Assembly: GCA_963813335.1 (NCBI GenBank)
Contig: CAWEYL010000003.1
Coordinates: 480,001-544,000 of the forward strand
Direction: 5' to 3'
DNA: 64,000 nucleotides
DNA from: an uncultured Chloroflexia bacterium
GTDB taxonomy: Bacteria > Chloroflexota > Limnocylindria > Limnocylindrales > CSP1-4
The notes beneath the pieces were generated by a model that was not told where the DNA came from, ran no database searches, and saw only the letters and a list, made by a program, of their open reading frames with translations. A program made the translations under genes and the position numbers. Shown one piece after another: positions 46,127 through 50,136 of this stretch. Position 1 is the first letter of the stretch. The number at the start of each line of letters is the position of its first letter.

Positions 46127-47020
46127 CTAGCCGCCGACCTCGACGGCTTCGAGCTCGGGGCCCTTCGGGACGAGGAGCGCCTCATCGGGCACGTCGGGCG
46201 AGAGCCCGGCCTCGCGCAGGATCGGGCCGTAGCCCTCGTCCTCGAGGCGGAGCGCCAGGTCCTTGCCGCCGGACTTGACGATGCGGCCCTGGGCCAGGAC
46301 GTGGACGACGTCCGGCTTGATGTAGTTGAGCAGGCGCTGGTAGTGGGTGATCAGCAGCACGCCGAGCTCGGGGTTGAGCATCGCGTTGACGCCCTCGGCG
46401 ACGATCCGCAGGGCGTCGATGTCGAGCCCGGAGTCGGTCTCGTCGAGGATCGCCATCTCCGGCTCGAGGACGGCCATCTGGAGCATCTCGAGGCGCTTCT
46501 TCTCGCCGCCCGAGAAGCCGTCGTTGACGTAGCGCGACGCGAAGCCCTCGTCCATCTTCAGGAGCGCCATCTTCTCGCGCATCGTGTTGCGGAAGTCGCG
46601 CATCGAGACGCCGCCCTTGATCGAGTCGGTCGGGTCGATGTCGGGGTTCTTGTCGATGCCCTGGAGCTTGGCGTTGAGCGCGGAGCGGATGAAGCTCGCG
46701 ACGCTCAGGCCGGGGATCGCGGTGGGGTACTGGAAGGCGAGGAAGAGCCCGAGGCGGGCGCGCTTGTCCGCCGACAGCGCGAGGATGTCGCGGCCCTTCC
46801 AGGTGACCGTGCCGCCCTTGATGACGTAGGCCGGGTGGCCCATCAGCGCATAGGCGAGCGTGGTCTTGCCGCTGCCGTTGGGGCCCATGATCGCGTGGAC
46901 CTCGCCCTTGCCGACGGTCAGGTCGATCCCCTGGAGGATCTCGTGCTCGGGCGAGGCGACGGGCGCGACGCGCAGGCCGCGGATGACGAGGTGCTGGTCG
47001 GTGACGGGCTGGTCGGTCAC
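46127..47020 (-). CDS. sufC: Fe-S assembly ATPase
   Basis: GPNGSGKTT, FLAFQYP, NDGFSGGEKKR, LDETDSGLD, ITHYQRLL. Confidence 0.95.
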   Translation of the reverse strand: MTDQPVTDQHLVIRGLRVAPVASPEHEILQGIDLTVGKGEVHAIMGPNGSGKTTLAYALMGHPAYVIKGGTVTWKGRDILALSADKRARLGLFLAFQYPTAIPGLSVASFIRSALNAKLQGIDKNPDIDPTDSIKGGVSMRDFRNTMREKMALLKMDEGFASRYVNDGFSGGEKKRLEMLQMAVLEPEMAILDETDSGLDIDALRIVAEGVNAMLNPELGVLLITHYQRLLNYIKPDVVHVLAQGRIVKSGGKDLALRLEDEGYGPILREAGLSPDVPDEALLVPKGPELEAVEVGG

Positions 47021-47538
47021 GGGTGGGTCACGGCTCCGTGGTTGGTGGCTTCGGGGTCGATGGATGGGATGTCGCGGCGTTGGGGGACGAGGTCGGCGAG
47101 GGTCATCGAGTCGAGGGCGCCGGTGATGGCGTCGCGGACGCGGACCCACAGGAGGTTGACCGTGCAGCGCGAGCTGCGGTCGCAGGTGGTGGCGTGCTCC
47201 GGGTCGTCGGTGGCGCACATCATCGGGGCGATGGGGCCCTCGAGGGCGCGCAGGACGTCGCTCATCGGGATCAGCTCGGGGGCGCGGGCGAGCTCGTAGC
47301 CGCCGTGGGCGCCGCGGGTGCTGACCACGAGGCCGGCGTCGCGCAGGCTCACGACGAGCTGCTCGAGGTACGCGCGCGGGAGGTCCTCCTCGGCGGCGAT
47401 CTCGGCCAGGCTGGCCGGCCCGGACCCGTAGTGCCGGGCGAGCTGGACCATCAGCCGGACGCCGTACTCGCCCTTCGTGCTGAAGGAGACGGCGCCGGTG
47501 CCGTGGAAGGTGGGACGGGTCGCGACGGGAAGGGTCAG
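47017..47538 (-). CDS. Rrf2/IscR-like regulator with three Cys (probable CTG start)
   Basis: FSTKGEYGVR, YLEQL, STRGAHGGY, C-x10-C-x5-C; GAGG upstream of in-frame CTG. Confidence 0.88.
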   Translation of the reverse strand: MTLPVATRPTFHGTGAVSFSTKGEYGVRLMVQLARHYGSGPASLAEIAAEEDLPRAYLEQLVVSLRDAGLVVSTRGAHGGYELARAPELIPMSDVLRALEGPIAPMMCATDDPEHATTCDRSSRCTVNLLWVRVRDAITGALDSMTLADLVPQRRDIPSIDPEATNHGAVTHP

Positions 47539-47550
47539 CGGAGTGCCTCG

Positions 47551-47581
47551 ATATCCGAGTGATTTCGTCGGGATTAGTCTA
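47551..47581 (-). promoter_or_regulatory. TAGACT -10 element directly followed by a second IscR-type operator
   Basis: Minus strand TAGACT-AATCCCGACGAAATCACTCGGATAT; same half-site as the sufU operator. Confidence 0.7.
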
Positions 47582-47614
47582 CGCGGCGCGGCGGAAGGGC
47601 GTCAACGAGGCTCG

Positions 47615-48294
47615 GGGGTAGTAGATCGGGAGCTCCGAAGTTGCCGCTTGCCGGCCGGACACGGTTGTGGGGCGAGTGGTGCGGCCGACCATCCCCTGTC
47701 GGAAGTTGCCGCCAGCACACGATCGGGATGTGATCGCGCTCAGGCCGGCCGCTCGTCTGACAGGGTCGTCGACGAGAAGACGGTCGTGCCTTCGACCTGC
47801 TGCTCGAACTTCAGTGGCATGCCAGGGGCCGACTTCGCGAACCAGAAGGTGCCGACGCCGTCTTCGTCGGTCCGCGTGTAACGGAGGCAGGCGAACCGTC
47901 CCGCGGGGATCTCGATCTCCTCCTCGGTCACGGTCGTGCGATCGGCGGGCATCGACGCATGGCCCTGGAGCTCGCGCCAGGCTGAGTGGCCGGTCTCCGT
48001 CTCGGTCAGGCGGGTCCCGTCCGGCGTCTCGTTCCAGAACTCCTGGTCGCCCCCGTCCTCGTCCCCGGTCGAGAAGCGGGTGACGTGGACATACGGGTCC
48101 TGGTCGGCCCGAACGACCAGCGTGCGGACCGTCCGACCCGGCGGACAGCCCTGGCGGATCTCGTCGGCACTGAAGGGAGTCGGTTGATCGCCGAGCCTGA
48201 ACTGATGCGGATCGTCAGTCACTTCCTCGGAGTGTAGCGACGGCGCGACCCCCAGGGGCGCCCGGCAACTTCGAGCCGCTCTATCTACTACCCC
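47615..48294. mobile_element. Non-autonomous TIR element with passenger gene and 14-bp target-site duplication
   Basis: TIRs 47615-47646 and 48263-48294 (26/32 identical); GTCAACGAGGCTCG at 47601-47614 and 48295-48308. Confidence 0.85.
47740..48222 (-). CDS. Hypothetical protein (160 aa), cargo of the TIR element
   Basis: GTG start preceded by TACACT and GAGGAA; motifs PTPFSADEIR, WRELQGHAS, FWFA..PGMP. Confidence 0.8.
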   Translation of the reverse strand: MTDDPHQFRLGDQPTPFSADEIRQGCPPGRTVRTLVVRADQDPYVHVTRFSTGDEDGGDQEFWNETPDGTRLTETETGHSAWRELQGHASMPADRTTVTEEEIEIPAGRFACLRYTRTDEDGVGTFWFAKSAPGMPLKFEQQVEGTTVFSSTTLSDERPA

Positions 48295-48328
48295 GTCAAC
48301 GAGGCTCGTCGTCGTTGACGACGGGCCG

Positions 48329-49319
48329 ATGATGCGGGGTAGCGTGAAGCTTCGAGCGATCCTGGGACTCTCGGTCGCGATGGTCGTCGGCTGCTCGGGG
48401 ATCGGCGACGAGCGCTCCGGGTCGGCGAACGCTCCCGCGTCGGCGACGAGCGCTCCCGCGGTCGGCCTCGCCCGTCGCAGCATCGCGCGTCGCGGATGTC
48501 GTCGTCGGCGGCGCTCGACCCGTGACCATCCACGTCCCGGCTGGGTACGACGCCAACCGCCCGGCGCCGCTCCTGATCGTCCTCCACGGCTACAGCTCGT
48601 CGGGCAAGCAGCACGACGCGTACTTCCATCTCGGGGAGGCCGCGATGCAGCGCGGCTTCCTCTACGCCTACCCGGACGGCACCGTCGACAGCTCCGGGAA
48701 CCACTTCTGGAACGCCACCGACGCGTGCTGCGACTTCGATCCGCGCGGGGTCGACGACGTCGCCTACCTCGCCGGCGTCATCGCCGAGGCGCGGGCGTCA
48801 CTCGCGGTCGATCCCAGGCGCATCTACCTCATCGGGCATTCGAACGGCGCGTTCATGAGCTACGCGATGGCCTGCGCGCAGGCCGACCAGGTCGCCGCGA
48901 TCGTCAGCCTGGCCGGCGCCACGTTCGTGGACCCGGCGGACTGCGCCCCGGCGGTCCCTGTCGCGGTGCTCCAGATCCATGGCACGGCCGACGACACGAT
49001 CGCCTTCAAGGGCGGACAGATCGTTCTGGGTGGGGGCCGGTCGATGGCGCCCTACCCCGGCGCCGAGACGTCGGTCGCCACCTGGGCGTCGTACGACGGC
49101 TGCGCGGGCTCTTCGGTCGTCGACGAGCGCGTCGACGTCGACGCGGACCTTTCCGATCACGGCTCGCCGGCCGAGGCCTCGGTGACGCGCTGGACCGGCT
49201 GCAAGCCTGGCGGGGCGGTCGAGCTCTGGACGGTGCCGAACGGCGGTCACAGCCCGAACATCTCCGCGTCGTTCCCGGCGGCCGTCCTGGACTTCTTCGA
49301 GGCCCACCCGAAGCCGTAG
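48329..49319 (+). CDS. Secreted PHB-depolymerase-family (LpqC-like) esterase (frameshift ~48470)
   Basis: LIVLHG, YPDG, WNATDACC, DDVAYL, GHSNG, IHGTAD, GGH. Confidence 0.85.
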
Positions 49320-49335
49320 GCGGCGTCGAGCGGGG

Positions 49336-50136
49336 TCAGTCAGCCGCGCGGATGAGGCGGAGCGGGCGGAGCGTCAGCCCGTAGATGACGATCGCGCCGA
49401 TGCCGGCGAGCAGGCCGAAGACGATGGCGCCAGCCGGCACCCACGGACCTTCGACGATCGCATGCCACACATCGAAGGCGACCGCGGTCACCAGCGCGCC
49501 GAGGATGCCGACGGCCAGCCGGTGGCGACGCGGGCTCAGGCCCGATCGATCGAGGAACGCCGTGGTCCGGGCGACGACGGGGCGAAGCGGGCGCAGCGGC
49601 GGGATCCGGCCAACGAGCTCGTCGCCGAGGCCGAGGGCGTCGTCGAGGAGGTCGGGTTCCGGGGCTGACGGGGTGGCCGCACCGGTCGCGGTCCCGGCCC
49701 GCACGGCGCGGACGAGCAGGACCGTGGCCGCGGCGACCGCCACGGAGTTGATGAGCCACAGCGCGGCCACGAACCACGGCAGCTCCGTGCCCGCATCCGC
49801 CGGCGGCGCCGCGTACGCGAGCGCGTCCGAGACGAGCGTCACGCCCATGATCGCGAGCGCGATGCCGATGCCGAGCCGGATGCGCCGGGCCACGGCCGGG
49901 TCGAGGACGGTCTCGCGATGACGAAGGCTGCGGACCCAGGTCGCGCCGGCGACCAGGGCGATCGCCATGACGGCGTAGCTGACCACGGCGTCGTAGGGGT
50001 CCAGCGTGAACGGCAGCGTCTCGCGCAGGTCGTGGACCTGGGTCGTCAGGAAGCAGAGGAGGCCGAACAGCACGACCGCACAGGCCGCGGTGTTGGCGGC
50101 GAGTCGCGTGGCTCGGGTCTCGTCCCGATCGCTCAT
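49336..50136 (-). CDS. Hypothetical membrane protein
   Basis: About 6 TM segments, PFTLDPYDAVVS motif. Confidence 0.75.
   Translation of the reverse strand: MSDRDETRATRLAANTAACAVVLFGLLCFLTTQVHDLRETLPFTLDPYDAVVSYAVMAIALVAGATWVRSLRHRETVLDPAVARRIRLGIGIALAIMGVTLVSDALAYAAPPADAGTELPWFVAALWLINSVAVAAATVLLVRAVRAGTATGAATPSAPEPDLLDDALGLGDELVGRIPPLRPLRPVVARTTAFLDRSGLSPRRHRLAVGILGALVTAVAFDVWHAIVEGPWVPAGAIVFGLLAGIGAIVIYGLTLRPLRLIRAAD

Follow-up and report, generated by a model that had tools for sequence, protein, structure and literature searches.

A 680-bp gene cassette with casposon-type ends, very probably a nonautonomous casposon derivative, at the rrf2-suf promoter of a Limnocylindria bacterium

What kind of enzyme inserts a gene cassette that has inverted ends and a target duplication and encodes no transposase? 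The question is raised by a 680-bp element in the genome of an uncultured Chloroflexota bacterium of the class Limnocylindria (assembly GCA_963813335.1), where it lies beside rrf2 on a 64,000-nucleotide stretch of contig CAWEYL010000003.1 (positions 480,001 to 544,000) that was analyzed as a whole and is here called the window. Casposons, which are driven by Cas1 and tied to the beginnings of CRISPR, belong to the large, rare, self-replicating transposons, and the CRISPR spacer integrase has its closest relative in the casposon integrase. In published descriptions, they encode Cas1 and a family B DNA polymerase (PolB) and have terminal inverted repeats (TIRs) and 14- to 15-bp duplications (PMC4779613, PMC6977970, PMC9939771). 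Sequence comparison leads us to regard the 680-bp element as very probably a nonautonomous casposon derivative, or mini-casposon, inserted at the -35 region of the rrf2-suf promoter. It holds only what a casposase needs in cis, namely, two TIRs of about 32 bp ending ...CTACTACCCC-3', plus one passenger gene.

The two arms of the inverted repeat (Table 1) are 32 nt long, complementary at 26 of 32 positions (81%), and separated by 616 nt, and both arms contain an outer 12-mer, GGGGTAGTAGAT, and an inner 11-mer, CGAAGTTGCCG, without a mismatch. Two copies of the outer 12-mer are present in the window versus 0.06 expected, and none of 100 shuffles reached that number. The element is flanked by an exact 15-nt direct repeat, CGTCAACGAGGCTCG, at 47600-47614 and 48294-48308, or by 14 nt without the C that doubles as the final base of the right end; with two or fewer mismatches, the 15-mer is found three times versus 0.73 expected. 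An extra inner box, TCGGAAGTTGCCGC, matches the left inner box (47634-47647) at 13 of 14 positions. The sole credible gene in the interior is a minus-strand open reading frame (ORF) for a LolA-like protein of 160 aa, and neither Cas1 nor a PolB is encoded. A first-pass annotation made from the letters of the window alone had described TIRs matching at 26/32 with perfect 12- and 11-bp boxes, the exact 14-bp flank (15 bp with the C), an additional box at 47702, and one cargo gene with its own -10 element. The repeat search reproduced the TIRs and the flank, the additional box is real, and the cargo gene has a conserved CTA(C/T)ACT 10 nt upstream. As that annotation had also stated, no transposase bearing the element's ends is present in the window, and none was found in the 2.54-Mb assembly (7 contigs, 72% G+C, 81% complete). 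Nor does this assembly hold a third copy of the ends when up to 8 mismatches in the 32-mer are allowed, and an Rfam scan of 46500-49500 gave no match at an E value of 1 or below.

Ends of this kind recur in relatives. The pattern GGGGTAGYAGWT-N6-12-GWWGTTGCC matches 13 of 131 genomes of the window's genus, including its own (G000; genomes and loci are denoted by our own handles), and the reversed control pattern matches none. With a slightly different pattern, 117 contig stretches were retrieved from a collection of species-representative genomes, nearly all of them from Limnocylindria, Limnocylindrales, or Chloroflexota metagenome-assembled genomes, apart from a few evident chance matches in other phyla. 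The census comprises 146 unique ends, each with at least 70 nt of flank, and their consensus is GGGGTAGTAGATAGAG-N-CCGAAGTTGCCG. Of the 146 ends, 54 have GTCAA at -14 outside the terminal GGGG, 9 have it at -13, and 7 have it at -15; in 41, TTGAC stands directly next to GGGG, and in 3 more it is shifted by one base. Hence, GTCAAN plus 8 nt precedes one end and the same sequence follows the other, and the duplication nearly always starts with GTCAA.

When each forward end was joined to the reverse end that follows it, 27 unique inverted pairs of 543 to 17,926 bp were obtained; 3 of them represent one element present in two related genomes. Compared in a fixed register of 14 nt, the flanks are identical at all 14 positions in 13 pairs, at 13 positions in 2, and at 12 in 1, so that 16 pairs reach at least 12/14, compared with 10 of 232 control pairs that were mismatched on purpose within that orientation class (mean, 7.9). 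The window repeat, at 14/14 (15 with the shared C), has the 14 to 15 bp of casposon duplications, and the 13 fully matching pairs have different repeat sequences. Among sites the eight bases after GTCAAY vary, but the two copies of a pair have them in common, so that the repeat arose by duplication at insertion and is not a core that the element brings along.

Insertions of this family favor one kind of target, which has a conserved motif on one side of the duplicated segment and is used again in tandem. The rrf2 operator stands beside 20 of the 146 ends, always on the GTCAA side (0 of 46 on the other side), and by our reading, 8 of the 13 end-bearing genomes of the genus have ends at the rrf2 promoter. 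The region upstream of rrf2 is conserved between the window and 12 congener loci up to GCGTCAA(C/T), where similarity ends. In the window, the rrf2-suf promoter is the only sigma-70-like promoter in 47400-48600, versus 0.0 expected from shuffles, and the left repeat copy opens with the reverse complement of the -35 hexamer of this promoter. The insertion keeps the promoter whole from the -35 hexamer downstream, and the element accounts for the synteny break directly 5' of it in this genome. Clustering of all ORFs near ends singled out the suf genes, which mark the target, and the Cas1 family.

Back-to-back junctions of the form CTACTACCCC-N13-15-GGGGTAGTAG (CCCC-N13-15-GGGG) were found at 16 unique places with up to two mismatches per ten-letter arm, 10 of them with N = 14. 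Each is the meeting of two elements with one repeat in common; loci L142 and L141 have two junctions each, and a neighbor's end lies about 14 nt away at 23 of the 146 ends. Such arrays of cassettes with a short repeat between them, the strongly preferred target, and the resemblance of CCCC-N14-GGGG to a two-armed recombination site would all suit a cassette moved by conservative site-specific recombination, in the manner of an integron, by a tyrosine or serine recombinase for which the 14- to 15-mer would be the attL/attR core. However, conservative exchange at a short core would not yield eight bases that vary by site and match within a pair, and no recombinase gene was found in or beside the elements examined, which makes this explanation extremely improbable.

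The enzyme that goes with these ends is seen in the largest elements. Two complete pairs (15.4 and 17.9 kb) carry a Cas1-family integrase and a family B DNA polymerase and are therefore casposons; the other 25 of the 27 pairs contain no integrase. The first, L166 (G147:C5), is 15,418 bp long, has TIRs of 37 nt at 89%, and is flanked by CTCAACAGGGCCTA(G) on both sides. Its 1000-aa protein contains the exonuclease motifs FDTET, NLPFD, and YNRDD and the polymerase motifs DVSSMYP, KTLANAASYG, and YLACDTDS, which we take to be those of a family B polymerase. The second, L179 (G493:C43), is 17,926 bp long, has the same ends, and lies directly upstream of an rrf2 gene between copies of GTCAACGAGGCCCG, a duplication one base off that of the window. 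Besides Cas1 (PF01867; E value, 4e-39) and a type I restriction-modification system, it encodes a PolB that shares 48% identity with the L166 PolB, and a further element starts right after its right repeat copy. Both ends of the window element fit the pattern that bounds L166 and L179. A third locus, L181 (G190:C3), has one end together with a PolB (45% identical) and Cas1, and the PolB motifs FDTET, NLPFD, YNRDD, DVSSMYP, KTxANxxxYG, and YxACDTDS are invariant in all three. The Cas1 of L166 (514 aa; PF01867 E value, 1e-43) has 6opm_A as its best solved relative (E value, 3e-23), and 6OPM is the Methanosarcina mazei casposase-DNA complex according to the data availability section of an eLife paper. 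Among eight aligned Cas1 homologues, the active-site-region residues E243, E245, H263, D275, and E278 (L166 numbering) are invariant, and all eight also have a CxxCG...C segment and a C-terminal helix-turn-helix (HTH)-like tail, ATGLS..YC..I.RG...PHP..W.

Fragments of the Cas1 C terminus (the last 50 to about 90 residues) were found at five more loci (L094, L105, L123, L135, and L157), in two of them (L094 and L135) inside paired cassettes, which points to an origin of cassettes by internal deletion. In a sample of 401 genomes of the class, 27 have ends, 23 have a Cas1-like match (E value of 1e-10 or below; some of these are CRISPR-type Cas1 or fragments), and 9 have both. A Cas1-like match is thus present in 9 of 27 genomes with ends versus 14 of 374 without (Fisher P = 3e-6, related genomes not being independent of one another; G416, among the nine, is flagged as unpublished). 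It is this co-occurrence alone that suggests catalysis in trans by a casposase. The decayed casposon L180 (G112:C4:1-12000) contains a Cas1 fragment (aa 280-509) and a PolB fragment, has no recognizable ends nearby, and is accompanied by a 445-aa protein with transposase-like HTH domains and a 1079-aa AAA ATPase.

By analogy with archaeal casposases, a Cas1-family integrase supplied in trans would use the two 3'-OH ends of the cassette on target strands 14 bp apart, choosing a site whose duplicated segment starts with 5'-GTCAA(C/T). Gap repair would then duplicate the 14 bp and leave the target restored on both sides, so that the site could be used again, which would explain the tandem cassettes in relatives. 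The first-pass annotation had proposed a nonautonomous, gene-shuttling mini-element mobilized in trans by a possibly Cas1-solo-like integrase, and this proposal gains support from the Cas1 and PolB genes of L166 and L179, the autonomous copies for which it had recommended a search. Its further tests asked for other TIR copies, which exist (13 of 131 congeners; 117 contig stretches), and for duplications that vary by site and match within each pair, as they do (13 of 27 pairs at 14/14). It had also cited the Aciduliprofundum casposon for 14- to 15-bp duplications, which are in print in PMC6977970, and for GGGG-terminated ends, which we could not confirm, GGGG and CCCC each occurring 0 times in the main text of PMC6614799.

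The cargo of the cassettes bears on whether a DDE transposase could be responsible. In 17 paired cassettes, the cargo comprises extracytoplasmic function (ECF) sigma factors, TetR and LuxR regulators, cyclase/STAND NTPases, a TIR-domain protein, RibD_C, an HsdS fragment, and unknowns, and none of the 29 ORFs belongs to a transposase or recombinase family. IS231-derived mobile insertion cassettes and Tn3-derived miniature elements are examples of DDE mobile insertion cassettes and miniature inverted-repeat transposable elements (MITEs). Like the window element, these have inverted ends and a duplication and lack a transposase; some have a passenger gene, and they move in trans, as the window element would. 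A mobile insertion cassette or MITE-like element of a Tn3-like or IS4/IS1182-like transposase is thus a natural thought, the more so as inverted ends that begin with GGGG recall the Tn3 family and transposase-less passenger-gene cassettes are known for DDE elements. The enzyme family found here is Cas1, however, the target is strongly preferred, and the duplication is 14 bp rather than the 5 bp of Tn3. No DDE family was detected in the 29 cargo ORFs or in the ORFs of the three large elements, Cas1 is the only integrase inside pairs of these ends, and the sole transposase-like HTH protein is that of L180, near which there are no such ends. We consider a DDE element very improbable. Defense-type genes are frequent in L166, L179, and L181 and in the cassettes L055 and L109, in the form of HsdR, HsdM/S, a GmrSD-like nuclease, Fic, an Imm5-like protein, a TIR-domain protein, and STAND NTPase-cyclases.

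Several observations weigh against a mini-casposon. The support for integration is entirely comparative, and neither Cas1 (PF01867 profile and tblastn) nor PolB (tblastn) was found in the element's own genome, which is 81% complete. Within the genus, a full Cas1 is present in G073 only (1 of 131 genomes), and G112 has Cas1 and PolB fragments, not full genes; Cas1 as a resident enzyme of the genus was rejected on that count. The database matches of the L166 PolB are weak and below threshold (PF03175, 3e-4; PHROG DNA polymerase families, 3e-6 to 5e-4), and PolB had no match among PDB sequences, either as a single sequence or as a three-sequence profile. The flanks of 11 of the 27 pairs agree at fewer than 12 of 14 positions, owing to one-base register shifts (L125, L150, and L166), decayed copies, and, in L146, the lack of a duplication. 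The first-pass annotation had suggested looking for an empty site upstream of rrf2; no empty rrf2-esterase allele was found, since relatives with both genes have the esterase and rrf2 on separate contigs. No contig spanning an empty site was present among the contigs of four runs that match the window at 90% likeness (uncovered parts and the joints 47510/47546 and 47514/47567 were excluded as evidence). Finally, G100 has the same insertion with the same repeat (95.9% identity over 2.4 kb; cargo protein, 100%), and the window copy was therefore inherited and is not fresh.

The cassette with this cargo gene is found in further lineages, and 14 metagenome contigs encode proteins 86 to 97% identical to the cargo protein. 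In L187, it lies by rrf2 in the orientation of the window, between repeats GTCAATCGCCGGTG and GTCAATCGGTGGTG, and L195 has the same distal flank. In L188, L189, L191, and L196, it lies by rrf2 inverted, between GTCAATCGGGACCG and GTCGATCGCGACCG and with decayed ends, while L198 has an intact end in a different flank and L186, L193, and L197 have the cassette between rrf2 and a 170-aa gene without recognizable ends. On a DNA contig of run X1, the cassette is inverted and nested in a larger pair of ends. The cargo homologues of G013 and G145 are not flanked by such ends. By our count, the repeat pairs agree at 14/14, 12/14, and 12/14 within lineages and at 6 to 9 of 14 between them.

These lineage-specific repeats favor separate insertions of the same small cassette, and we think it rather likely that the cassette moved as a small unit. 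The other course of events to be weighed is decay in place, in which internal deletion would have stripped a full casposon at the rrf2 target of Cas1, of PolB, and of the greater part of its cargo, leaving a 680-bp remnant that never transposed at that size. L179 is just such a full casposon upstream of an rrf2 gene with a nearly identical duplication, Cas1 C-terminal fragments persist in other cassettes, solo ends are common, as they are in M. mazei (PMC4779613), and G100 has the insertion by descent. A relic in place would not, however, be expected beside rrf2 in both orientations with repeats that agree within lineages and differ between them, nor in the different flank of L198, and no Cas1 or PolB remnant is present within the window element. 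Inversion between the ends, with later decay and rearrangement, could account for part of the evidence from orientations, repeats, and cassette states. On balance, we judge decay in place to be unlikely.

The extra inner box is best read as a relic of an older left end, the present left end lying 87 nt further out, because the homology of the relatives to the window stops at about 47695-47700 and L199 has a decayed end there. Doubled ends in the same orientation in L036 (8119/8237, 118 nt apart) and L071 (2066/2268, 202 nt apart) resemble this vestigial second left end. As a family trait, the extra box was rejected, an exact copy being present at only 4 of 140 ends.

Other loci of the family depart from the simple pair. 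In L146 (1451-2779), the ends face each other, both with GTCAAC-type flanks (GTCAACGCTCGATG and GTCAACGCACCATG, read outward), and this locus is possibly a recombinant of two elements or an inversion. The 3.7-kb cassette of L135 (1827-5513) lies in a nearly palindromic target, GTCAAGGCTTGAC, that reads GTCAA from either side. For the solo ends in G112, G065, and G001, no partner ends were found on the same contigs, and a 3.8-kb "pair" in G016 that includes groES and groEL is doubtful, its partner being degenerate and its repeat decayed.

The window element matches the casposon scheme point by point, save that it encodes none of the machinery. It shares with the bacterial casposons of family 3 a bacterial host and an intergenic insertion (all bacterial casposons are intergenic as described in PMC4779613), and its relatives with the same ends encode Cas1 and a family B polymerase, have variable cargo such as type I restriction-modification, and possess a Cas1 with the Cys-rich CxxCG...C segment and a C-terminal HTH-like tail. 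In contrast to family 3 casposons, the window element lacks Cas1 and PolB, and assignment to this family is by architecture only, the PolB of the relatives being very divergent (no PDB match and a weak PF03175 match).

Among characterized enzymes, that of M. mazei requires its C-terminal HTH domain and inserts ends finishing in ...TCCC-3' at 14-bp targets that have a conserved 5'-CGCA, whereas that of Aciduliprofundum boonei makes 14- to 15-bp duplications, and the five 3'-terminal residues of the end suffice for it (PMC9939771, PMC4779613, PMC6977970, PMC6614799). The family 2 casposons of M. mazei, whose casposase 6OPM is the closest solved structure to the Cas1 of the relatives, resemble the present family in the 14-bp duplication with a conserved 5' motif (CGCA there and GTCAA here) and a variable remainder, in ends that finish in 3' C residues, in tandem copies sharing one duplication, and in solo TIRs (PMC4779613, PMC6977970); tandem casposons with a common duplication and solo TIRs were thus already known (PMC4779613). 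They differ in their archaeal host and in their targets, a tRNA-Leu gene and intergenic sites, and those sources deal with casposons, whether full or decayed, and with solo TIRs, but with no small cassettes that carry foreign passenger genes.

The mini-casposons in print are laboratory constructs (PMC9939771, on Beguin 2016), in which short DNA with TIRs only is integrated by a casposase at a preferred target, often in tandem and with a duplication. The cassettes described here are, in contrast, natural and contain diverse genes, with 25 nonautonomous versus 2 autonomous elements among the 27 pairs. CRISPR arrays offer a further parallel, drawn in PMC9939771, in that a Cas1-family integrase duplicates a short target and regenerates the site, giving arrays of insert-repeat-insert. 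Unlike CRISPR spacers, the inserts here are gene cassettes of 0.5 to 18 kb with their own ends and a 14-bp repeat, and there is no Cas2, leader, CRISPR RNA, or interference module. In the main texts of the openly accessible literature, we found neither natural mini-casposons with cargo nor casposons of this Chloroflexi lineage described.

Small casposase-type cassettes, until now laboratory constructs, thus appear to occur naturally across a whole bacterial class. They stack in tandem at a regenerated 14-bp target and carry regulators, sigma factors, cyclases, and defense-like and unknown genes. If this reading is correct, Cas1-family integrases act in nature as general inserters of gene cassettes, and biochemistry gains a GC-rich casposase of bacterial origin for which both the 32-bp end and the target are defined. 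The step from inserting one's own transposon to inserting other DNA into an array would likewise become testable. It is possible, and we put it forward tentatively, that the Limnocylindria casposases form a natural cassette-insertion system that accepts any DNA between two 32-bp ends, repeatedly and in tandem, at GTCAAY-N8 targets, among them the -35 region of the rrf2-suf promoter, and so builds arrays in which 14-bp repeats separate the gene cassettes. Such a system would be an integron-like Cas1 shuffling platform and a living analogue of the proposed intermediate between casposon and CRISPR array.

The cargo protein belongs to a family with at least 240 homologues, all of the named ones hypothetical, and is present in 4 of 131 genomes of the genus. 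Its AlphaFold2 model (pLDDT, 94) was matched by Foldseek to YmcC-like, MucB, RseB, and LolA chains (E values of 4e-6 to 1e-4; TM scores of 0.5 to 0.59), and the predicted structure suggests a LolA/RseB-like open beta-barrel fold that may bind hydrophobic ligands. A weak match to DUF3108 (E value, 1.2e-3) is under the curated cutoff. The sequence CTA(C/T)ACTCCGAGGAAGTG 5' of the gene is kept in the relatives of the cassette. Contigs of RNA libraries from two studies cover 47700-48223 at 98 to 99% identity and end at 48223, while a DNA contig runs on; this stop lies one base before the GTG and 8 nt past the conserved TACACT, a weak hint that the cargo transcript is leaderless or nearly so. RNA-library contigs of runs X7 and X9 join the 3' region of the cargo gene (from 47700) to the rrf2 leader (up to 47575), which hints at read-through from the cargo gene into rrf2 in a related lineage, with 30 nt on the short side of the joint and carry-over of DNA possible.

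Table 1. Features of the 680-bp element and its target site, in window coordinates
Feature	Position	Strand	Basis or remark
rrf2, Rrf2-family regulator	47017-47490	-	Pfam Rrf2, E value 1e-38; NCBIfam rrf2 superfamily; outside the element
rrf2-suf operon promoter (TTGACG, 18-nt spacer, TAGACT)	47576-47605	-	-35 hexamer within left target copy
Left target copy	47601-47614	+	Exact direct repeat; register as in 54/146 unique ends (GTCAA at -14 from GGGG)
Left TIR (GGGGTAGTAGAT...CGAAGTTGCCG)	47615-47646	+	Fits family consensus from 146 unique ends
Extra inner box (TCGGAAGTTGCCGC)	47699-47712	+	13/14 to left inner box; read as relic of an older, decayed left end
Cargo gene, 160 aa, GTG start	47740-48222	-	ORF list; start backed by homologues of 159-160 aa
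-10-like TACACT of cargo gene	48232-48237	-	10 nt 5' of GTG; conserved in relatives
Right TIR	48263-48294	-	Inverted-repeat search and word statistics
Right target copy	48295-48308	+	Exact direct repeat

To the left of the element, rrf2 is followed on the minus strand by ORFs for an ABC ATPase like SufC and an aminotransferase like SufS. The right-hand neighbor is a gene for an esterase like polyhydroxybutyrate (PHB) depolymerase, of which the upstream sequence TTGACGAC...GATGATGC is kept in G005 and G022. In 48329-48560, an ORF with a lipoprotein-type signal peptide, starting at 48329 (MMRGSVKLRAILGLSVAMVVGCSG...), is out of frame with the ORF of the esterase domain (48522-49319), and between the two there is an imperfect 37-nt direct repeat with a spacing of 38 nt (48382-48418 and 48420-48456). 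This frame change in the PHB-depolymerase-like gene may stem from a tandem duplication that shifted the frame or from an error in the assembly. On the other side, the Pfam match of Rrf2 starts 26 residues upstream of the first ATG, GTG, or TTG of the listed ORF (47452-47562, minus strand); this N-terminal extension has no canonical in-frame start, and a CTG after GAGG is a possible start codon.

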